This document shows, in pieces, positions 10,486 through 64,000 of a stretch of DNA of 64,000 nt. The notes below the pieces were generated by a model that saw only the letters and a list, made by a program, of their open reading frames with translations, was not told the DNA's origin and searched no databases. Every line of letters begins with the position of its first letter. The first letter of the stretch is position 1. The position numbers were made by a program, and so were the translations under genes. This stretch comes from Okamejei kenojei (taxonomy: Eukaryota): assembly GCA_035221665.1 (NCBI GenBank), contig CM069158.1, forward strand, positions 6,882,001 to 6,946,000, in the 5' to 3' direction.

Positions 10486-10721
10486 CATTTAAATGCAAGT
10501 TTAAATGACATTATTATAAAATTATAAATATCTTTTATCTCAAGACAGATTCTAATTCCCAACGTTCTGTACAAAGGACCAATGTTTCTTCCCAAATGTG
10601 TGCGTTTTTCAACAGACGCCATCAAAGATTTTAATTACATTTGTTTTAGAGGAAATAAGATGTTTTGCAGCTTTATTTCCCCTTTTCTGATCAATATCAC
10701 TTTTTCCTTTTCAAAACACAG

Positions 10722-11972
10722 TGTGTAGAGAACACTTTACTCATGAAGAAACATTGGAGGAATTGACTTATAGGAAGGCACTTCGAATTGCCTTGAATAT
10801 TTTAGCTGGCAATGACTCCTATCTGCCTCCAATGACGATAAAAGAACCCGTATTGGCAAAGACTGGGTTGTTTAATTCAGAGAAGCTTAAAAATAATGCT
10901 TGTGCTTTCAATACTAAAGGAACACAAACAGCTTTGAAGCCAAATGGGATGCATTTGCTTCACGAACAGGAGAGCATATGCACTCGGCAAAGCAGCAGGA
11001 GAGCATCTTGTGTTAAAAATACGCCAGAAAATGAACAAACGAGAACGTGGACTCGATCATACACATTAAACCAGTCTTCAAGTAACTCGAAAAGCATTGT
11101 CGAAAAGGCAGAAGGTGGTCGTGTAGGGAAAAGGAAAAGAGGAAGGGTGAAAACAGATATTTGTCATCCCCAGACAGATTCTTCAAAAAATAGCTCCCCA
11201 CAATATGAACAGCCACTGCAACCTACAAAATCAACACCTGAAAAAAATAGATCTTTGGGAAAAAAATGTGGAAGATTACGAAAAGAGGAAAAGTCCCCAA
11301 TCCATGCCAGTAGTTCGACAGTCTCTGGAGTAAACAAAGACCAAAATGGAAAAATTAAAAAGAGCAGACAGAAATCAAAGTTTTGTAAATCTACCTGTGA
11401 AGGAAATACAGATTATTTCCCATCCAACTGTAAATCTGAGGAAGTTTGGGCGTCTGGTATTTCTTGTAGCTATTTAGAATCTACTCCGAAACGTGGGACA
11501 TGCAGCCACGTTGGATCATACAAATTCCCGCTCCTTTTAAGCAGCCAAAGAAATATTCCGTTTGAAAATAAAAATGATTTGAGCCAAACTAGGGAAATAA
11601 ACCAGAAAAGGAAACGAGGAAGAAAGTCTGCAGAATCAAAGGAGTGCCTTAATGTCAGCGAGACTTCAGCTGATTTGGATGCTAATGTGAAATCAAGCAA
11701 CAGGTCAAATGTAGACTCTTTTGCAGAAGGGAGTCCAGAACAGCATTTTATGAGTACTATTTTTGGGTTGCCTTTGGATGGGCAAGTGAGCCCTATTAAT
11801 GGATGTATCCAGAAACATAGTAATATGGACAGCCCTCATACGAACTGTCCGGCTGAAATAAGTACGGAGCGAACATTCAATGCTTCAACCATTACCAAAG
11901 AAGAAGGAACTTTATCTACCACAATGCAGCAAACTCACCTTGGGTCATCATTGTTTGAAATCGATGAAGTGG
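10722..11972 (+). CDS. PWWP3A: PWWP3A large exon (conserved LEELTYRKALRIALNIL followed by a long S/K-rich, probably disordered region)
   Basis: Lies in the 441-aa ORF 10721..12046. cag acceptor ends at 10721 and the G|GTAAGG donor starts at 11973. Length 1251 nt, phase 1-1. Motif matches PWWP3A LEELAYRRSLRVALDVL. Confidence 0.92.
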
Positions 11973-12314
11973 GTAAGGTTATCTCTTTCTATTGTGACAT
12001 TTATCTTCTTTATGGTCAAAAGCAACATGAAAATCTGAATGTTTGACTAAAAATTAAGTTTTTTTTAGGATTTTACCTCTTACGAAGTAAAATTACCTTT
12101 AGAAAGTATATTGATGTGGATTAGAATAGTAAAAATGCTTATTGAAATGCAGAGTCTCAGATCCATTTACACAATCATTAGCAAACACGTTGGTTTAACT
12201 GTCGGATTTTTTTAAAGTAGACTGCTAATCGTTAGTCACTAATAATCATTGAGCATCACAGAGCTGGTAAAATGTGCTTTGGGAATTAGGAAATGTACAT
12301 CTTTGCATAGCAGT

Positions 12315-13779: not shown

Positions 13780-14720
13780 GATTAGATTAGATTAGATTAC
13801 CTTTATTGTCATTCAGACCTTTCGGTCTGAACGAAATTTCGTGCCTGCAGTCATACATATAATAAAAGTAACAGAAACACACAATAAACACAAATTTAAC
13901 ATCCACCACAGTGAGTTCACCAAACACCTCCTCACTGTGATGGAAGGCAAAAGTCTTAGTCTTTGTCTCTTCCCTCCTTGTTCTCCCTCTGCGCTGAGGC
14001 GATCCAGGCCTCCGACGCCGCCGGCAACGCCTGAACGCCAGAACACCGCCACAGCACCAAAGTCAGGCCACAGCTCCAAGTCGGGCCACCGCCGCCACCG
14101 GAACGCCGGAGTGCCGCCACAGCTCCAAGTCGGGCCGCTGCCGCCGCCGGAGCGCCGCCACAGCTCCAAGTCGGGCCGCCGCCGCTGCTAGGCCGGGCCG
14201 CAGCTCCAAGTCGGGCCGCCGCCGCTGCTAGGCCGGGCCGCAGCTCCCAAGTCGGGCCGCTGCTGCTGCTAGGTCGGGCCGCAGCTCCAAGTCAGGCCGC
14301 TGCCGCTGCCGAAACGCCGGAGCGCCGCCACAGCTCCAAGTCGGGCCGCTGCCACCGCCGGAACGCCGGAGCGCCGCCACAGCTCCAAGTCGGGCCGCCG
14401 CCGCTGCTAGGTCGGGCCAGTCGGGCCACTGCCGCTGCTGGAACTGCCGCCACAGCCCCGAGGCCGTCAGCTCCGCCATTAGGCCTCAGCGCAGATGGAG
14501 ACAGGGGACACGACTAGAAAAGGTCGTATCCCCCAGAAGGAAGAGACTAAATCATGTTTCTCCCAACCCCTCCCCCCCCCCCCCCCCCCCCCCCCCCCAC
14601 ACTTACACAACCTAATAAACTAACTAAACTAAAACAGACATAAGAAAAACAACAACAAAAAGAAAAAACAAACGGACTGCAGGCGAGCCGCAGCTGCCAG
14701 GCAGCGCCGCCACTTCCGGT
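13780..14720 (-). mobile_element. Non-autonomous retroelement with a (ctaat)n tail and an internal GC-rich minisatellite (cagctccaagtcgggccgc..., about 14040-14460)
   Basis: Tail gattagattag at about 13780-13798. The 3' region resembles that at 53644-53828. Multiple degenerate tandem units. Confidence 0.6.
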
Positions 14721-22775: not shown

Positions 22776-24083
22776 AAGATAAGTAAGGTGTCATTGTAGT
22801 TGTTTTAAGTACTAAATTAAAATAGAAACATAGAAATTAGGTGCCTTCAGCCCTGCAGAAAACATGGCTGATGTATCTTGGTGGGGCCACATCCAACTCA
22901 CTCTTAAATATAGCTGAACTGCCTCAAAAAAGAGAAAACTGCGAAGTTTGTAGAAAAGCGTGCAAAGTTGTAGAGATAAGTAATGTCTTGTTATTGGATA
23001 GGCTTGATGTGGGCATAGTTTTTCTAGTGTTCGAAAAAGCTGCAGAACCTTCCAATCGTGCCATATATGGACATGGTAGGATTGTTTACTGATAAGATAT
23101 TTGTATAACTATACTATCTCTCCTTTGTCTCGGTGAGTTGGACCATGAGGGAGCTGAGGGAAGCTCCTCCTGCCAACTCTCGCCTGGCGTTACAATAGAA
23201 GAATCTTGCTTTACTTAGGTTGTCAGTGAAGGGTTAAAGAACTTTAACAATTACTTCCTCTAAATGATGTAACAGTGCAGATTTACATAACTGACCTGTT
23301 AAACATTTATGATATATAAAGCAGATTATAGGTTATGACAGAAATTTAAAATGTTTGTAAGACCTGGCTCTCGAAATCAGTGACATCGTGGCCCTTCATC
23401 TTTCTGTTAAATCTATCCCCTCTCAGCTTAAACCAATGCCCTCTCGTTCTTCATTTGCCAACTCTGGAGCGGAAACAACTCTTTGCCCTATCTATTCCCC
23501 TCATGCTTTTATACATCTCCAAGTTCACCACTCGGCCTCCTGCACTACAAGAAATAAAGTTTTGGATTGCCCAGCCTCTCCCCATGGCTCAGGCCCTCAA
23601 TTCCTGGCAACATCCTCAAATCTTTTCGGCACTCTTTCCAGCCTAATGCCATCTTTCCTTCAGCAGGGTGACCAAAGCTGAAATCAATGCTTCACGCGCA
23701 GCCTCATCAGCTTGTAAAACTGTAACATAGTGTCCCAACTTCTATGCTCCATTTCCCAACTAATGAAGACCAGCATGCCAAAAAGTTGCGTTCACCACCC
23801 TGTCTATCTGCAATGCTGGAACTGTACAGCAAAGAAACAAGCCCTTTGGATACAATGTCTGAGCCGAATATGATGCCAAGATAAACTTATCTCATCTGCC
23901 TGCACGTGATCCATTCCTGGCATATCAATGTGCCTCTTAAATGCCACTATCATATCTGCCTCCACTACCCCTGGTAGAGAAATCACTAATTCTTTGTCTT
24001 GGAGGAAATGCCCTGGTCAACTTACCTCAGTATCTTTAATACATGCCAATGTTGCTGTGGGCTCTATTAGTGCAATACTAATG

Positions 24084-24504
24084 TGTAGATGGTATGTGTA
24101 TACACCTTTAATTGATAGTGACGATGTCCATGCTAACCACTCCCCCCACCAGTTAGTATAATTGTAACCCACACGCCCCTAGCTCTCTCTCTGGTGATCG
24201 TGACAGACCACGTACAGCTAGGGCTATATCATGTATGATTAATAAAGTAGTGAAGACCTTAAGGTGTCTGTGTACTTTCTCTACATGTTTTTTTTTTTAA
24301 CCATGTAGAGAAAGTCCACAGACACCTTAAGGTCTTCACTACTTTATTAATCATACATCATATAGCCCTAGCTGTATGTGGTCTGTCACGATCACCAGAG
24401 AGAGAGCTAGGGGCGTGTGGGTTACAATTATACTAACTGGTGGGGGAGTGGTTAGCATGGACATCGTCACTATCAATTAAAGGTGTATACACATACCATC
24501 TACA
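24084..24504. mobile_element. Two ~200-bp LTRs in inverted, tail-to-tail arrangement flanked by one 5-bp TSD
   Basis: Arms 24084-24285 and 24304-24504 are reverse complements, each TGTAG...CTACA with AATAAA. TAATG occurs at 24079-24083 and 24505-24509. Confidence 0.88.
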
Positions 24505-26599
24505 TAATGGTAGATGAAATTAGTGGTAAAACTATGTGAAGAATCCATTCAACTGGAATATGCACAGGTCTTTAAAGGCACAGATGACTCTTTTTCAGTG
24601 TCATCTTCCCCACCTTAAGGTGCCAGTTAGCACAGAGCTATGATTCCAGTGACTTATGTTAACTTGAATGTCTACTTGTTTTTTAAATTTGCAGCGATTC
24701 TCTGCAGAGAGAATGGCACAGGTATCTGCCATTCATCTACATGACTTTGTGTTAGTTTCCAGTTAGTAATTGGGACCACGCGACCCATCTTGGTTCAATG
24801 AATGTCACAGCAATGGAAGTACACAAACATTCAGATAGGATCAGGAATGACAAATGTGACCATTCAAAAAAGTCATGACAATCAACAGCATCTTCCCGCT
24901 TGTTTATTGTTTATTTTTAGTCAAGAGATACAGCGCGGAAACAGGCCCTTCAGCACACCGGGTCCGCGCCGACCAACGATCCCCGCACATTAACACTATC
25001 CTACACACAACATACTAGGGGCAATTCTTACATTTACTAAGACAATTAACCTGCAAACCTGTACATCTTTGGAGTGTGGGAGGAAACCGAAGATCTCTGA
25101 GAAAAACCACGAATGTTCCTGCTTCTCTCAGTCCTAAGTGGCTAAAGCCTTATTCTGAGTCTTTGCCACCTGATTGCAGATTTTCCCACTAAAGAAATAT
25201 CTTTGCAGCAGCTATGCTGTCGGGTCACCTCATAATCTTGCATCTAATAACTTCTCATTCTTCTGAACTCCAGAAACCATACACCCCATTTGCTCACCCT
25301 TTCCTCATAAGAGTGTCTCCTCAGGATCCCGGAATTAATTGCCTGAACATTTGCTGCGCTATTTCTTAAAGCAACTACCTTTTCTCAAATGACATCAGAA
25401 CTCTGCATGTGGTGAACTAAGATCATTAATTGATCAATCATAAATAATAAACTAACAATTGGGTTTAGAGTCATACAGCTTAGAAAAAGGCCTTTCGGCT
25501 CAACTTGCGCACGCCAACCAACATGCCTTATCAATGTTAGTCCTAATGTTTCTTAAACGTTGCAAAAGTACCAGCCTCAACTATCTCCTCCGGCAACTCG
25601 TTCCATACACCCACCGCCCTTTGTGTGAAAAAGTTACCCTTCAGCGTATTAAATCTTCCCCCCCCCCCACCTTAAACCTATGTCCTCTGGTTCTCGATTT
25701 CCCCCACTCTGGGCACGAGACTCTGAGTCTACCTGATCTTGTTCCCCTCATGATTTTGTACACCTCTATAAGATCACCTCTCATCCTCCTGCGTTCCAAG
25801 GTATAGAATCCTAGCCTGCTCAACCTCTCCCTATGGCTCAGACCCTCGACAACATCTTTGTAAATCTTCTCTGCGCCCTTTCCAGCTGGAAGCGATTGAA
25901 CTGTAATCCAGTTGGACCTTTCAGTTCCACTGTGTTTTCTTAGCCTCTCCATGTTGGTTCCCATTATCAAATTGTCCTCTAGATTTGGTCTCTCCAAAAA
26001 GCCACATCCCCTGGATCGATGACTGGCATCCTCTCATCCTGGCTTTTCCATTACATTAATGGATTGCCGCGCTATTACTGAGATCTGCAAATATGATAAA
26101 ATGGCTGGATGAGGGTTAACAGAATATTATAATTCCTCTGCTTTCCTATTTTTGGCAAACATTAGTACTATTTGAAGTCCCACTTTTGTATTTAAATCTT
26201 AAGTTAAATAGATCTTCAGATGCTGCTTGACTACTAAGTTCATCTAGCGTTTTTTTTTTTTACTGCTCCAGAATCCAGCTTCTGCAGTCTCTTGTGTGTC
26301 TCCAATATAAAAGTTATCTTGAATTTCGCGATCAGGTCTTCATTTATTTCCCATTCGTACTATCACAGGGTCCAGCTTCAAACCCAATTAGATCTTGTGC
26401 TGTGACCATATCAACACATTTGCAGGAAGTTTGGATTGTGGGTATTTTGGGTGTTCACTCAAAGTTTAAGGTGAATTAAATGACAAAAGTGCTTCAGGGT
26501 AGGTTGTAGAAGTTCAAGAAAATAGCCCAAAGAGCACTTCATATGGCAGTCCATTGCTAGTACCATCTTTAAGTATGTAAATATTTGGACTTTCTGCAG

Positions 26600-26728
26600 G
26601 AGTACAATCATCCTCTTTATTATCAGTAGAGTTTAGTTCACCAGACTGCCTTTCAACAAGCCAATTCACAGAAGAGGTTATGGAGGAAGAAGATGACGAG
26701 AACCTTCCAAGCATACTGGCGCACCAAG
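26600..26728 (+). CDS. PWWP3A: PWWP3A coding exon (GVQSSSLLSVEFSSPDCLSTSQFTEEVMEEEDDENLPSILAHQ)
   Basis: ctgcag acceptor, G|GTGAGA donor, 129 nt, phase 1-1. Acidic tract plus LPSIL precedes the PWWP domain as in PWWP3A. Confidence 0.88.
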
Positions 26729-27224
26729 GTGAGATTTATAACTCCAGTTCTTTGTGTCTTAAAATCATAATTTAAACTTTTTCTCTCATCTCTCACAGTT
26801 CACTATGTACTTGGGGCTGACAGAGTATAATATGTTGTTCAATATATTAAAGTTTCAAAGCATATTTTATATGATGGAAAAGTGATATTTAAGCAATAAC
26901 TACTGTTATGTTATAGGACCAGAATTAGGCTATTTGGCCCATGAAGTCTACTAGGCCTTCAATCATGACTGATCTATCTTTCCCTTTCAACCGCATTCTC
27001 CTGCCTTCTTTCCATAACCCAACATCCTGTTAATGACAAATTTAAACTACCTGCTGTTTAATATCATCCCAGTTTCATGGAACAAGTGTTTTTTTGCAAT
27101 AGTCAAATCTTTTATTTTTTTAAATGAAGTGTTTTTTTATATTAATTAGGCTGCTAAATTGGTGTTGCACTCTTAGTAGGATCATATGTAAGTCCACAAT
27201 ATATTAAGATTCTAACTCATTTGT

Positions 27225-49124: not shown

Positions 49125-49705
49125 AGACAATAGAGGTGCAGGAATAGGCCATTCGGCCCTTCGAGCCAGCACCGCCATTAAATGTGATTATGGCTGATCA
49201 TCCACAATCAGTACCCCGTTCCTGCCTTCTCATATCCCTTGACTCTGTTATCTTTGACCCTTGAGCTCTCTATCTTTAAGAGCTCTGTCTAGCTCTCTCT
49301 TGAAAGCATCCAGAGAGCCAGCCTCCACTGCCCTCTGAGGCAGAGAATTCCATAGACTCACAACTCTCTGTGTGAAAAGGTTTTTCCTCATCTCCGTTCT
49401 AAATGGCTTACCCCTTATTCTTAAACTATGGCCTCTGGTTCTGGACTCCCCCAACATCGGGAACATGTTTCCTGCCTCTAGCGTGTCCAAACCCTTAATA
49501 ATCTTATATGTTTCAATAAGATCCCCTCTCATCATTCTAAATTCCAGAGTATACAAGCCCAGCCGCTCGATTCTATGAACATATGACAATCCTGCCATCC
49601 CGGGAATTAACCTGGTGAACCTACACTGCACTGCCTCAATAGCAAGAATGTCCTTCCTCAAATTGGGAGACAAACTGCACACAGTACTCCAGGTGTGGTC
49701 TCCTT
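49125..49705 (-). mobile_element. CR1 3' fragment (partly deleted in duplicate copy 2, near 56620-56800)
   Basis: ORF 49248..49682 with RLGLYTLE.R.MRGDLIETYKI and FTQRVVSLWNSLP. Confidence 0.92.
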
Positions 49706-49721
49706 AGTGAAGACAGACTTA

Positions 49722-50024
49722 AAGCCCTGTCCCACAGTACGAGTTCATTTCAAGAGCCCTCCCGAGTTTGGCCTGATTCGAACTCGGAGATTGATGGTAA
49801 TAGCCACTCGTCGGTTGAAAAATGCTGAGAAATCTTCACGAGTCTTGCTTACCCGCCGTTAGCGAGTCTTCCCGAGTACCTGCCGTTAGCGTTATGAGAC
49901 GCTAAGAGACGTCCCCGAGCTCCGACGTACCCACTACGTTCATTCTCCGTGCTTACCACGAGTTTAATTTTTTTTTTAACTCTGAAGAGCTCTTGGAATT
50001 AACTCGTACCGTGGGACAGGGCTA
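49722..50024. mobile_element. PIF/Harbinger MITE (duplicate near 56815-57144)
   Basis: TIRs agccctgtcccacagtacgagtt / aactcgtaccgtgggacagggct with a TTA TSD on both sides. Confidence 0.85.
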
Positions 50025-50649
50025 TTACCACCTTAAATAACAATATTTTACACTGCAATTGTGTAAGGCATGTACATTGTGAATGGCTCGATTGTAATCA
50101 TGTATTGCCTTTCCGCTGACTGATTAGCACGCAACAAAGGCTTTTCACTGTACCTTGGTACACATGACACTAAACTCAACTATAAACAGAATCCAAACAA
50201 AATGCAGCAAAAATAAGTGACTGCTCAACATAATGTACCAAATCTTTAAAGAGGATGTTACTGCTAATTCTCCTACAACTGTGTGTCCCTTGTGTATAAA
50301 CATAAATTAACTCATTTTTTCATACATCTTACATAGTGCTTGAAATAGAATTTACTGTTTGAGCTTTTTTTTCTTAAAAGCAAAACAACCTTAAATGGGC
50401 TTTTCATAGAATTTTAGTCTAGGCTACCATTTAAACAAAAATGACTCTATTCTAAACATTAAAAAAAACAATTCAATTTGTTTTCACCAACATTTCTGTT
50501 CTGGATACCCAAGAATCTCATTAAGTTCAACAGAACCTTTGGTGACAAAAGGCTGAGGAGATGTATATTTACTAGCCTACTTCATTAGATCTCTTGTGTC
50601 CCCTGCTTTCATACCTCCCACTCTCGGGCAAAAAGTGTGAATGAAGGTG

Positions 50650-52230
50650 AAACTGCATTACAGCTAGAGTAGTATGGCAATTTTATTGTTCAAGTTTCAA
50701 TATGTTAGTGAGTCCTTCAGCAGCAATGTCCCAGGAGATTTTTCCTCTCTGCTCCCCTTCATCCCTCCTTTTGATTTTAGGTTTATTGCAATTCAGGACA
50801 TTTTCTATGACTGCATCGGAATTTAATGTCACTAACAGAGACCTCCTTGCCAACGTTCTGCCATTCACTTCTTGAAAAATGCATTCACTAGATTTTCAGT
50901 ACAGCCGTAATCCGATAATTCCATAATTTCATCACAGTCACCATCTTTACGCACACAAAATCCTTCAAAAGTTACTTCACGTGACCCTTCAAACATGGCG
51001 GAGTAGTTTTCACAGCGGGTGAGGCAGCATCAATGGAGCGAAGGAAATAGGCGTCGTTTCGGGGCAAAACCCTTCTTCAGAAACGTTGTCTATTTCCATC
51101 GCTCCATAGAAACTCCACCTGCTGAGTTTCTCCAGCATTTTTGTCTGCCTTTGATTTTCCAGCATCTGCTGTTCCTTCTTAAACAAGTAGTTTTCACCAC
51201 CATTTTTGCCATATTCACTCTTCACCTGCTTCCATGCATGAGACACATTACAAAGTTGTCTTGTCAATGGAATATTTTGACTGACAATCTTGAATTATCC
51301 TTTCTTCAATCAGCCTTGAAGTCACTCTGGTACTCCTCTTTAGCATTGTATCATGCCTTATGAAAAATAACATATTCAAGATTTTCAGTCAAAATGTTCC
51401 AACAATAGAGCATTTTAATCCACAGACAGAATTAATCTTGTCACATTGGCAGAGAGAAAAGTAACACATATTTCCATTCACAAGTTATTGTGCAGGAGGA
51501 TTTGTACAGCAGTTATCCAACACAACCACTATATCTTCAGACAGGAAAGAGTCAAGATGCTGGAGTAATAGTAGGTCGAGCAGCATCCCTGGAGACCGCC
51601 AGTAGGTGAAGCTTCAGGTGGGCATCCTTCAGATTGAAGAAGGGCCCAGATATAAAACAGCACCTATCCATGTTCTCCAGGGATGCTGCCTGACCTGCTG
51701 AGTTACTCCAGCATTATGTCTTTCCTTTGTAAATCAGCATCTGCAGTTCCTAGCTTCTACATTTATCTTTAGACAGTCCCCTTTAAATAAATGTTCTTTT
51801 ATGCTTGGTACAAATATATCATAAAACCGTCAAACAAGTTTCTGCTTCCATCCAGACATTACATTGAGATTTATGATCAGCAAGGAAATAGGTGGTGCCT
51901 TTAGAAAGAAATTTGCTTTGAATACTTCCCAACGACAAGTGATTTCACTCAGATGCTTCCTGTGACATTCACACATGTGGTCAAGCGATCTTTGATTTGT
52001 TTAACCCAGGACAGAACTATTTTGTTCACTTCAACTAAAATCGTTTGGAAGGCGGAACCACGTTAAACCTTTTGCAGCAGGGTTATAGATTTGCTCATCA
52101 GTCAGATCGTGTTCACTAACTAAATTCTTAAATGTTTCATAAAATTCCTCTGCCATCATATTGCCCGATTTCTGTTGGCTTAGTCTTCATGACGTACCGC
52201 ATCTCAAAGCAAATAAACTGTCCTTGAGAA
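50650..52230 (-). mobile_element. Ancient Tigger/pogo transposase remnant interrupted by Penelope repeats (duplicate near 57770-59285)
   Basis: Minus-strand peptides EHDLTDEQIYNPAAKGLTWFRLP (cf. QIYNADETGLFW), LDNCCTNPP (cf. LDNCSAHP) and TFLSANVTRLILSVD (cf. FLPPNTTSLIQPMD). Confidence 0.75.
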
Positions 52231-56400: not shown

Positions 56401-59400
56401 TACTCTATATATCTTTAAATTGCTGAACTACATGTTGTAGCGGCAGATTTTCATATCTTTCAGAAATTAGCATGATCTCCTTTAGATCTCGCATGGACCC
56501 TGCATGGTCAAAGGGTTAACCCTCCCCATCGTTTCTCAAAACTAATCTAAAAACAAAACTTTTGCGCAAGCATTTAAGCTCCAAACACGTCATTAATCCC
56601 ACCCACAATATAACAGGCAGTCTCCACTGCCCTCTGAGGCAGAGAATTCCATAGACTCACAACTCTCTGTGTGAAAAGGTTTTTCCTCATCTCCGTTCTA
56701 AATGGCTTACCCCTTACACTGCACTCCCTCAATAGCAAGAATGTCCGTCCTCAAATTGGGAGACAAACTGCACACAGTACTCCAGGTGTGGTCTCCTTAG
56801 TGAAGACAGACTTAAAGCCCCGTCCCACAGTACGAGTTCATTCCAAGAGCTTTACCGAGTTTGCCCTGATTCGAACTCGGAGATTTATGGTAATGGCGAC
56901 TCGTCGGTACTCGGGTCTCTGGTGGACATTTTTCAACATGTTGAAAAATCTACACCAGTCTTCCCGTGCTTACCTGCCGTTAGCGAGTCTTCCCGAGTAC
57001 CTGCCGTTAGTGTTACGAGCCGCTAAGAGACGTCCCTGAGCTCCGACATACCCGCTACGTTCATTCTCCGTGCTTACCACGAGTTTGATTTTTTTTAAAC
57101 TTGAGGGAGCTCTTGGAATGAACTTGTACCATGGAACAGGGCTATTACCACCTTAAATAACAATATTTTACACTGCAATTGTGTAAGGCATGTACATTGT
57201 GAATGGCTCGATTGTAATCGTGTATTGCCTTTCCGCTGACTGGTTAGCACGTAACAAAGGCTTTTCACTGTACCTTGGTACATGTGACACTAAACTAAAC
57301 TATAAACAGAATCCAAGCAAAATTCAGCAATAATAAGTGACTGCTCAACATAATGTACCAAATCTCTAAAGAGGATGTTACTGCTAATTCGCCTACAACT
57401 GAATGTCCCTTGTGTATAAACATAAATAAACTAATTTTTTCATAGATCTTACATAGTGCTTGAAATAGAATTTACTGTTTGAGCTTTTTTTTCTTGAAAG
57501 CAAAACAACCTTAAATGGGCTTTTCATAGAATTTTAGTCTAGGCTACCATTTAAACAAAAATGACTATTCTAAACATGAAAAAAACACAATTCAATTTGT
57601 TTTCACCAACATTTCTGTTCTGGATACCCAAGAATCTCATTAAGTTCAACAGAACCTTTGGTGACGAAAGGCTGAGGAGATGTATATTTACTGGCCTACT
57701 TCATTAGATCGCTTGTGTCCCTGCTTTCATACCTCCCACTCTCGGGCAAAAAGTGTGAATGAAGGTGAAACTGCATTACAGCTAGAGTAGTACGGCAATT
57801 TTATTGTTCAAGTTTCAAAACGTTAGTGAGTCCTCCAGCAGCAATGTCCCAGGAATTTTTTCCTCTCTGCTCCCCTTCATCCCTCCTTTTGATTTTAGGT
57901 TTATTGCAATTCAGGACATTTTCTATGACTGCATCGGAATTTAATGTCACTAACAGAGACCTCCTTGCCAACGTTCTGCCATTCACTTCTTGAAAAATGC
58001 ATTCACTAGATTTTCAGTACAGCCGTAATCCGATAATTCCATAATTTCATCACAGTCACCATCTTTACGCACACAAAATCCTTCAAAAGTTACTTCACAT
58101 GACCCTTCAAATATGGCAGAGTAGTTTTCACAGCGGGTGAGGCAGCATCAATGGAGCGAAGGAAATAGGCGACGTTTCGGGGCAAAAAAGTTCTTCAGAA
58201 ACGTTGTCTATTTGCTTCGCTCCATAGATGCTGCCTCACCTGCTGAGTTTCTCCAGCATTTTTGTCTACCTTCGATTTTCCAGCATCTGCTGTTCCTTCT
58301 TAAACAAGGAGTAGTTTTCACCACCATTTTTGCCATATTAACTCTTCACCTGCTTCCATGCATAAGCCACATTTACAAAGTTGTTTTGTCAATGGAATAT
58401 TTTGACTGACAATCTTGAATTATCCTTTCTTCAGTCAGTCTTGAACTCACTCTGGTACTCCTCTTTAACATTGTATCATGCCTTATGAAAAATAACAAAC
58501 ATATTCAAGATTTTCAGTCAAAATGTTCCAACAATAGAGCTTTTTAATCCACAGACTGAATTAATCTTGTCACATTGGCAGAGAGAAAAGTAACACATAT
58601 TTCCATTCACAAGTTATTATGCAGGAGGATTTGTACAGCAGTTATCCAACACAGCCACTATATCTTCAGACAGGAAAGAGACAAGATGCTGGAGTAATAG
58701 TAGGTCGGGCAGCATCCCTGGAGACCGCCAGTAGGTGAAGCTTCAGGTGGGCATCCTTCAGATTGAAGAAGGGTCGAGATACAAAACAGCACCTATCCAT
58801 GTTCTCCAGGGATGCTGCCTGACCTGCTGACTTACTCCAGCATTATGTCTTTCCTTTGAAAACCAGCATCTGCAGTTCCTAGCTTCTACATTTATCTTCA
58901 GACAGTCCCCTTTAAATAAATGTTCTTTTATGCTTGGTACAAATATATCATAAAACCGCCAAACAAGTTTCTGCTTCCATCCAGACATAACGTTGAGATT
59001 TATGATCAGCAAGGAAAAGGTGGTGCCTTTAGAAAGAAATTTGCTTTGAATACTTCCCAACGACAAGTGATTTCACTCAGATGCTTCCTGTGACATTCAC
59101 ACATGTGGTCAAGCGATCTTTGATTTGTTTAACCCAGGACAGAACTATTTTATTCACTTCAACTAAAATTGTTTGGAAGGCGGAACCACATTAACCCTTC
59201 TGCAGCAGGGTTACAGATTTGCTCATCAGTCAGGTCGTGTTCTCTAACTAAATTCTTAAATGTTTCATAAAATTCCTCTACCATCTTTGCTATATTTAAG
59301 AGTGAGTTGGATGTGGCCCTTGTGGCTAAGGTGATCAGAGCGTATCGAGAGAAGGCAGGTACGGGATACTGAGTTGGATGACCAGCCATGATCATATTGA

Positions 59401-61041: not shown

Positions 61042-61984
61042 TTATAGTGAACCCAACACCGCGTGTCCAAAGCCTGTCATTGTGTGAACAGGTTTATTGT
61101 AGAACTTTGAAAAAGTTTCTTCTTTACACCACCCTGCGGTTTCTAAAATGTGTTCGAGTGGTACGTCCTGTAACTTCGCCGCGGATGTAGCTGCTGCCCT
61201 GGTGGAGTGAGATTTGAACACATCAGTGTCTACTCCTGCTAAAAGTAACACCTGTTTTAACCACCTTGAAATTGTTTGCACTGAAGCTTTAGTGTGTGGT
61301 TTCTTATGCGTAATCATTAATGTTTTTTCATCACTCAAAGAGTTTTGGTAACTTTTACATATTGATTCAAATGTGTAACTACACACAACGTTGGATCAAT
61401 AGGGTAAGCTTGAAACATTACCTTTGCTTCAGTTCTCCCTGGTCTGCTTTGTTTGATCAGATCGTAAACATAGAACACATATTATCTGCAGCCACATGCA
61501 TACAGTCTAAACGTAGCATTTGTAATGTTTGCACCCTTTGAGCTGAAACCAATGCCATTAACATTACTAATTTAAATGTTAACTTTTCCAATGACAAAAC
61601 ATCGATTGGAGTCCATTGCCTAAGTAAAGTAAGTACAATGCTGACATCCCAAATTTCTGTATATCTTGGTTTGGGTGGATTTTTGTTAAAGATTCCTTTC
61701 ATAATTGATTTTTGGTCAGAGATTTTCCCTAAATAAGATGATAAGGCACTACGTGCACTATTAATGGCACTATAACTTAAGTGCTGTTCAAAATGCAACT
61801 CGGCAAGGAACTCCAATATGTTTGCAATGTTCACAGTATGATAGGATATATTTGATTGTCTACAAAAAATTTCCCATTTCTTTATATGTGTCATATATTG
61901 TCTCTGAGTGCTATCTCGCCATGATGCGACTATAATATCCATAGTTCTATCCGACAATCCAAGCTCTTGTAGTGGTCTGGTCAA
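61042..61984 (-). pseudogene. DIRS tyrosine recombinase, split by a frameshift/stop
   Basis: SAQRVQTL (catalytic R), HSTR, AGW and FSKFY motifs in ORFs 61457..61984 and 61042..61386. Confidence 0.9.
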
Positions 61985-63836
61985 AACCTGCAGATTAACA
62001 AATTCATATAAGCATGTAATGGATGAATTTCTTTGGTTACTGGTTTTATCAATAAATCACTGCTGCTAGGAATTGACATATATGGTTCTTTAATCATGTT
62101 TAACATCAATGGGAACCATGGTTGTGTCGGCCAATTTGGAATCACCAATAATCCTGTGGCAGAATCTTGTTCTATTTTCTTCAGACATTGCTGAACCAGA
62201 GCAAATGGCGGAAAGGCATAAAAGAACATATTCCCCCAATGTAGTGAAAAAGCATCTACTGCTACTGCATCTGGATCTGGTTCCCAAGACACATATTTAG
62301 GCAATTGATGATTTAATCTGGATGCAAACAGATCAATGTCTGGTAACCCATATTGAATCACAATTTTACTGAAAATTACTGTGTTCAACATCCATTCTGT
62401 GTTATCTTTAACCACCCTTGATCTATTGTCTGCCACCACATTGTCTTTACCTGGGATGTAATTTGCCGAAATCCAAATTTGGTGCTTAATACACCACTGC
62501 CATATCTGATTGACCAGACAATCACATGATACCGATCTGACTCCACCCATGTGATTAATATATGCAACAGCTGTTTTATTGTCTAATTGTATCAGTACAT
62601 GCAGATTCTTTTTTGTAGAACAATAGGCTTTTAACCCATAAAATGCTCCCTATAATTCTAAATAGTTAATACCATATGTTTGGAGAAACATTTCCTCTTG
62701 GACAGTCCATCTGCCCCCACAGCTGGTAAATGAATCTGTCGCCCCCCCATCCGAGAGCACTAGCATCTGTTTGTAAAATTACTTCAGGCTGTTGTATCAG
62801 AATGTTTTTAAACAGCTTGTGGGACATTTTCAATCCACCATTGTAATTCCAATAAAGCTTCTTTTGTTAATTGCATAGGCCTATCAAAATGGCCTGCTCT
62901 CTTTTTTAGAACTCTTATTTTGTCCCTTTGAAGGTTTTGGTAATGTAATGGACCAAATTCTACTGCAGGAAATGCTGCTACTAATTTACCAATAACCTTT
63001 GCTACTTCTCGGATGGACGGATAAGGTTTGTGAATGAGACCCCTACAGGTCATTAAAATATCATCAATCTTATCTGTTGGCAAAGTTACTAACATAGTAA
63101 CTGAGTTAATCACAAACCCCAAATAGTTAATTGACTGTGCTGGCTGCAGCTGGGACTTAATTGGATGAATCAAGAAACCTAACTTCTCAAATAAAGTTTT
63201 AGTTGCTGAAACTGATTTTTCAGCTGATTCCTGATTACTATTGATTAAAATGTCATCCAGATAAGCCATAATGATGTGCTTTTGTGCTCTTAATTGTGCT
63301 AAAGCTGGTTTGAACAGCTTTGTAAAGAGCCTGGGAGCTGAACTTAACCCATTTGGTAAAGCTTTGAATTGCCACAGCTGTCCCAGCCAATTAAATTTTA
63401 AATACCTTCGAAAGAACTGATGTATCGGTACTGAATAGTACGCATCCTTTAAATCAATTGTAGCCATATAACAACCTGCTGATATCAAATGTCTTGTAGT
63501 GTTGAATGTTTCCATCTTAAAATGTTTATACTCGACAAATTTATTAAAGTTTGTAAGGCCCAGAATAATTCTGCAACCACCATCTTTTTTACTTCTTGGA
63601 AATATATTTGACACACGTTGATGTTTATGTTCAACAGTTTTTTCAATAACACCTTTTTTAAACAATTTGTCAATTTCCACATTAATTTCTGCCTCTTCAA
63701 TTGCAGAAAACATGAAACCATAAGCAGGTTTATTTTGTACCGGATAGTTAACACCTTTAAATGTAATAGTAGCTCCTGAAACTGTTTGTAAAATACACCG
63801 ATCAGATGTGATGGCAAGCCATTCATCATAAAACAT
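61981..63836 (-). pseudogene. DIRS pol: RT (IDLKDAY, LPNGLSSAP, YLDD), RNase H (TDAS..GWG, INYLEL, DNKTAV) and adenine-MTase-like domain (IDLFAS, YAFPPF)
   Basis: ORFs 62808..63836 and 61981..62550. A break near 62808 and an in-frame stop (INYLEL*GAF) disrupt RNase H. Confidence 0.9.
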
Positions 63837-64000
63837 TTGTCAATCTCCCTTCAACTGGAGATTTGTCCACAGTTTCTTTAAGAATAGAATAATTTTTTTG
63901 TACCTCTCTATATGAACGTGGTGGTCTCCTTCTCCCATATACGGGTGAACATTAGGCTGTGTCGGATGGTAATATTTTCTTATCATATTCCTGCCTCTGT

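Follow-up and report, generated by a model that had tools for sequence, protein, structure and literature searches.

Two Gypsy LTRs joined tail to tail inside one target site duplication in a skate intron, and a small class of insertions with U3 at both ends

How can two long terminal repeats (LTRs) come to lie tail to tail inside a single target site duplication (TSD)? We investigated this question at positions 24079-24509 of a 64,000-nucleotide stretch of the Okamejei kenojei genome (contig CM069158.1, positions 6,882,001 to 6,946,000; hereafter the window). A first-pass annotation, made from the letters alone, had reported there two units of about 201 bp beginning with TGTAG and ending with CTACA, joined around an 18-bp T-rich spacer and enclosed by the direct repeat TAATG. 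Our analysis confirmed the palindrome and its single TSD as a real observation (Table 1). The inserted unit is 421 bp long, and the chance of a 5-bp TSD match at any one locus is about 1 in 1000. Both arms read TGTAGA...TCTACA, so the LTR starts and ends with a 6-bp inverted repeat. They differ by exactly the 3 substitutions and 1 indel, the latter in a C run, that had been estimated before. The 18-nt spacer consists of TG, eleven T, A and ACCA. The minus-strand arm was said to be followed by TGG, like the start of a primer binding site (PBS); the remnant is in fact TGGT, and the plus-strand arm also runs into the start of a PBS, TG. Each arm contains the AATAAA that had been noted, the sense copy at 24241 and the complement of the other at 24343. 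In a canonical LTR element or TRIM, direct LTRs would enclose a PBS and a polypurine tract (PPT); here the arms are inverted and there is no PPT between them. No microhomology was found that would account for the turn. A PPT altered by G-to-A changes and the T-rich box upstream of the PPT were each considered as the source of the T11-A filler, and both matched poorly.

Table 1. Positions of the palindrome, its parts and the neighbouring exons in the window.
Feature	Position	Strand	Basis
Upstream coding exon of PWWP3A/B-like gene (approximate)	10721..11974	+	tblastn, 90% to P0001
Left TSD copy, TAATG	24079..24083	+	sequence; TSD length of the LTR family is 5 bp
Arm A, complete Gypsy LTR, 202 bp, U3 end outward, sense to host gene	24084..24285	+	98% to dispersed LTRs; PBS/PPT context of relatives
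AATAAA of arm A	24241..24246	+	predicted pairing with TTTATT at 24343 in the hairpin
TG, first two PBS bases after arm A	24286..24287	+	5' LTRs of the family are followed by TGGYGTCAGAAG
T11-A filler	24288..24299	+	sequence; weakly like the T-rich box before the PPT
TGGT, first four PBS bases after arm B	24300..24303	-	same 4-nt remnant at the turn of L125
Arm B, complete Gypsy LTR, 201 bp, U3 end outward, antisense to host gene	24304..24504	-	
Right TSD copy, TAATG	24505..24509	+	flank past it is single-copy
Next coding exon of PWWP3A/B-like gene (approximate)	26599..26733	+	tblastn

The first-pass annotation had called for the parent LTR element, and such a parent was found. The arm had 2118 candidate matches in the 2.76-Gb genome, and its first 23 bases had 1226 exact matches. 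The relatives comprised solo LTRs, 5' LTRs running into TGGYGTCAGAAG and 3' LTRs with a purine tract in front of them. Their TSDs measured 5 bp, at solo LTRs as at full elements, within the 4-6 bp of LTR elements, and related loci showed the TG...CA ends, the PBS after the 5' copy and the PPT before the 3' copy that mark Ty3/Gypsy LTRs. A 4.6-kb copy of the family encodes reverse transcriptase (RT), RNase H and an integrase zinc finger in Gypsy order, and its relatives are named Gypsy or K02A2.6-like. We take the PBS to represent the 3' end of tRNA-Leu(CAA), and the family presumably belongs to the Mag clade. We identify the arm as the LTR of a Ty3/Gypsy family whose normal elements have direct LTRs. 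From the PBS and PPT context of the relatives, both outer ends of the palindrome are U3 ends, and 2 and 4 PBS bases are present at its inner ends. Normal copies have the PBS, the PPT, the Gypsy domain order and the 5-bp TSD, whereas the palindrome, built from the same LTR, has inverted LTRs, two U3 outer ends, no PPT and no coding sequence. Because it has neither PPT nor genes, this insertion is probably a dead end.

We searched the whole genome for pairs of outward-facing U3 ends separated by no more than 400 nt in three related LTR families, a pattern whose counts represent a lower bound. It was found at 48 loci, versus 1 for the reversed control. Exact 5-bp TSDs were present at 14 of these loci; 24 had a purine tract on one side and are thus part of a longer element, 7 were not family LTRs, and 3 showed neither feature. 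Where both ends were family ends and a purine tract was absent, 14 of 17 loci had an exact TSD versus 1 of 272 cross-locus pairings, and two of these 17 comparable loci stayed without one after extension (L109, no TSD assigned; L124, 4 of 5 bases). Extension of 20 other census loci yielded 5 more U3-U3 elements with exact TSD, and a PBS-anchored search with 8 matches yielded another; the 3 census loci extended earlier gave no such element. Altogether, at least 20 insertions, the palindrome included, combine two outer U3 ends with an exact TSD of 5 bp. Five belong to the arm's family and 12 and 3 to two sister families. They range from 217 to 3134 bp, and their junctions and TSDs are all different.

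Several candidates were set aside. Two inverted LTR pairs of 1.5-1.8 kb were dropped, L031 with arms 90% alike and no TSD, and L033 with a truncated left end. L054 was a short local inversion, L119 and L140 were nested insertions, and L056, L058, L062, L066, L103, L127, L130, L133 and L139 were ordinary U3/U5 elements with inner inversions.

A U5-U5 control, run on the arm's family only, gave 2 matches, neither with a TSD at the matched ends. One of them extends to a 1375-bp element with U5 at both ends and the exact TSD GGGTA (L175:574-1948, G000:C33), which means that the U3 bias is not absolute and that insertion works with two U5 ends as well as with two U3 ends. Among short insertions with TSD, the arm's family has 5 of U3-U3 type versus 0 of U5-U5 type. 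The first-pass annotation had asked whether the junction marks a family or a single event. The exact tail-to-tail junction matched once genome-wide, and mid-LTR anchors matched twice, the second match being a local inversion. The palindrome in its exact form therefore exists once, but with 20 U3-U3 insertions it is no one-off: within a small, recurring set of Gypsy LTR insertions that arose by self-copying, it shows the greatest symmetry.

Two other recurrences were seen. Two elements that differ in age terminate in an identical inverted U3 stub of 27 bases, which follows a complete 3' LTR (L065:1700-1727 and L068:1736-1762). In L119, L126 and L140, sister-family elements lie in LTRs of the arm's family, in opposite orientation and at nearby sites close to the poly(A) signal.

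Comparison of the two arms within single insertions was informative about their source. The arms of L063 are identical at 259 of 260 positions, and both carry the same odd base, G, opposite tRNA position 58. Those of L106 agree at 106 of 106 positions across a private jump from U3 into internal sequence, and those of L125 share a base found in 0 of 79 other LTRs. These comparisons show that in several class members one arm was copied from the other. Rare alleles were also shared by both arms of the palindrome. G at LTR position 9 (G9) occurs in only 8 of the 1226 LTR starts, both arms counted, and T193 was found in 2 of 53 other LTRs in one comparison and 1 of 70 in another; no other copy among those examined had the pair. 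All six other G9 LTRs are 5' LTRs, and G9 is absent from the 4 of 4 partners that were readable, as would be expected of an error in plus-strand synthesis. The palindrome's arms differ at 3 sites and ordinary LTR pairs (n = 9) at 3-9 sites; by this low value the insertion is young within its family.

The turn between the arms was also investigated. Read by eye, it lies 0-7 nt from the LTR end in at least 8 of the 20 U3-U3 insertions, including the palindrome. A copy of 18 nt of the tRNA primer is present in 8 of the 20, versus the 2 and 4 nt of PBS at the palindrome. Ordinary copies of the arm's family match the tRNA for 12 nt only (the sister families were checked less well). Genome-wide, an LTR end is joined to the 18-nt tRNA 3' copy at 768 sites, in several LTR families, which indicates that plus-strand transfer often goes wrong in these families. 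Reading on into the tRNA was counted by hand in 67 of the 100 listed junctions, where the next base was T in 32, A in 21, C in 7 and G in 7; in a second set of loci it was T in 12, A in 10, C in 2 and G in 2. The read-through sometimes reaches the anticodon arm (for example L054, L072 and L077-L090), and ARAGORN did not call these partial tRNA copies. In HIV-1, m1A58 of the primer is the plus-strand strong stop (PMC8599865). The mixed base at the A58 position is what copying across a methylated A58 would leave. Taken with the 18-base copies, it indicates that these junctions were likely made during reverse transcription. The hundreds of read-through copies kept by these families record, like fossils, how the primer was modified and how reverse transcriptase behaved.

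Some of the tRNA copies occur in more complicated structures. One inverted site within the integrase region is joined to the 18-base copy repeatedly (L015, L023-L025, L027, L033, L042, L062 and L146), with different structures behind each join, and this site is a hot spot of wrong plus-strand transfer. At L160:580-1579 and L077, several successive jumps with repeated pieces of LTR end and tRNA still lie within a 5-bp TSD.

The first-pass annotation had suggested the integration, as a unit, of an aberrant cDNA that had folded back and had U3 at either end. With a recurrent class of 20 loci with exact TSD, this became the best-supported reading, and we consider it probable that the palindrome is one insertion of two U3-outward Gypsy LTR copies, made by strong-stop fold-back at the PBS followed by opening and integration. 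The plus strong-stop strand, comprising U3-R-U5 and a few PBS bases, would fail to pair with the short PBS and miss its transfer. It would then gain the T/A filler, turn onto itself and copy back to U3. Since the resulting hairpin would have one duplex end, it would have to be opened to a linear duplex, most simply by re-priming at the polypurine tract and strand displacement through the loop; yeast Ty1 work reportedly supports such a step. The product would be a linear palindrome with two U3 ends, inserted in concert, presumably by the element's integrase, to give the 5-bp TSD. We infer the fold-back itself, the opening step and the use of two U3 ends by integrase from the structures. Several observations speak against this reading: the T11-A filler is more suggestive of end joining or slippage, the 2 and 4 nt of PBS at the palindrome are too little by themselves to prove an origin in reverse transcription, and L137 joins the CA of the LTR directly to an inverted U3 stub, which fits autointegration equally well.

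A chromosomal event is a different way to obtain the same structure. A normal element could have inserted and later suffered a break at the PBS, with fold-back synthesis over the 5' LTR, rejoining at the 3' LTR end through TCTACA and loss of the interior. This would account for the one TSD, the filler and two arms that both derive from a 5' LTR (G9), and the 6-bp inverted repeat of the LTR would favour it; it fits the palindrome taken alone, and host fold-back repair with end joining has been described in yeast (10.1101/2024.03.07.583931). However, the yeast fold-backs are mostly shorter than 14 bp (same source), and such repair gives no reason for breaks so close to the LTR end at at least 8 of 20 loci. 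Short U5-U5 insertions should also be equally common, contrary to the 5 versus 0 in the arm's family. We therefore regard a chromosomal origin as unlikely. A somewhat fainter prospect is that one integrase complex took its two U3 ends from different cDNA or strong-stop duplexes, whose inner ends were fused with the T-rich filler by host end joining. The filler without microhomology and the unequal PBS remnants would follow naturally from such a fusion, but the arms share two rare alleles, one of them found otherwise only in 5' LTRs, and L063 and L106 need one molecule. Moreover, no mixed-family U3-U3 pair with TSD was found, both extended mixed pairs being nested insertions.

The remaining two explanations are both very improbable. 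The first-pass annotation had offered an undescribed MITE-like LTR derivative, that is, a family spreading as a unit with inverted LTRs as its terminal repeats. The long terminal inverted repeats and the TSD agree with the definition of a MITE, but no internal structure was found in many copies, and the ends are those of a retrotransposon LTR where a MITE would share those of a DNA transposon. Because the exact palindrome is single-copy, with one junction match and a local inversion as the only other anchor match, it is not a MITE family; the short-spacer tail-to-tail form was found once and the junctions differ in 20 of 20 insertions, so this suggestion is not supported. A fold-back artefact of assembly would agree with the result that, in two runs of organism A, no listed contig crossed the junctions, the left one included, and none covered 24004-24059, a gap that by itself is no proof. 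Against an artefact stand the 3 substitutions and 1 indel between the arms, two of these differences being private to one arm each, the exact TSD, and the 19 other cases with TSDs of their own. In the related organism B, a 581-base contig from two runs in two studies follows 23940-24083 and departs where the LTR begins, which is the pattern expected of an empty site, the other 437 bases lying outside the comparison.

The palindrome lies inside a 14.6-kb intron of a plus-strand PWWP3A/B-like gene, about 2.1 kb before the next exon, and its placement within the pre-mRNA of a gene was thus upheld by the tblastn exons on both sides. The best named relatives of this gene are from rays and skates. 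The predicted RNA hairpin of the palindrome, a candidate ADAR/Dicer substrate in the first-pass annotation, has an energy of −386.6 kcal/mol, and none of 100 shuffles was as stable; the AATAAA at 24241, a putative premature poly(A) signal, is buried within this one predicted hairpin. Of 24 sequencing runs listed, none was recorded as an RNA run containing the locus, which speaks neither for nor against a transcript. With every insertion of this kind the genome gains a long hairpin made of the family's own LTR, and because this one lies in a host intron, a self-silencing effect can be tested. Mu killer of maize is likewise an inverted duplication of a transposon's own end in a host transcript, able to form a hairpin (PMC3440606). 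However, it derives from a DNA transposon, is about 4 kb long and has been shown to silence, whereas the palindrome is 0.4 kb, intronic and vertebrate, and its hairpin is predicted only.

We then compared the class with known systems. Integration in vitro with two like ends is known, and so are deletions by mis-transfer from older retroviral work, so that the ingredients of the proposed mechanism are known ones. DIRS elements have inverted terminal repeats and Penelope-like elements have inverted pseudo-LTRs, and they resemble the palindrome as retroelements with inverted terminal copies. They have a tyrosine recombinase or GIY-YIG parent and no fixed 5-bp TSD, whereas the palindrome's parent is a Gypsy element that bears an integrase, has its LTRs in direct orientation and leaves a TSD of constant length, 5 bp.

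Asymmetric and inverted HIV-1 proviruses have been reported (PMC9278108). In retroviral faulty plus-strand transfer and tRNA read-through, plus strong-stop DNA similarly stops early or enters the tRNA and lands at a wrong site (PMC8599865, PMC9278108). However, PMC8599865 states that read-through products cannot integrate, whereas many of the skate products are fixed in the germline and 20 have two U3 termini with a clean TSD. Autointegration (PMC7197481) also yields inverted segments beside LTRs, and a direct join of the LTR-terminal CA to element DNA is present in class members such as L137. The products described in that source are circles inside the particle, whereas the palindrome lacks the direct CA join and has PBS remnants and filler at its centre. 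In the literature searched, as far as its text was available and with older virology and yeast papers mostly outside it, no account came up of inverted LTR pairs that are integrated within a single TSD; the available portions of PMC11042837, PMC2939329, PMC3187697 and PMC12220202 describe no inverted LTR insertions.

If the strong-stop fold-back reading is right, the class would provide evidence from the germline that DNA with two identical ends is a possible substrate for insertion by an LTR integrase, and that self-copying is one way for plus-strand transfer to fail. These insertions resemble MITEs, and tools that require direct repeats would miss or misfile them. A broader idea, which we find doubtful at this stage, is that Gypsy elements with a short PBS routinely make linear plus strong-stop palindromes that integrase inserts through their two U3 ends. 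This would be an unrecognised in-vivo route that plants perfect LTR hairpins in introns, as possible double-stranded RNA or hairpin RNA genes. If true, intronic LTR hairpins could be a source of double-stranded RNA that acts on the parent family, as a vertebrate equivalent of Mu killer, or could seed new hairpin RNA genes, by a route invisible to LTR finders based on direct repeats.

Some other features of the window were observed. In the right flank past the TSD (24509-24520), 10 positions match the first 12 bases of the LTR, which may be due to chance or to a role in targeting. On the minus strand, an open frame at 61457-62056 has a weak match to a phage-integrase N-terminal SAM-like domain and lies beside an RT frame (62808-63839); together they are probably a DIRS-type element. 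A GC-rich tandem array with units of 40-49 bases occupies 14048-14462. Finally, 49622-52157 and 56715-59285 form a 2.5-kb local duplication with 94% identity.
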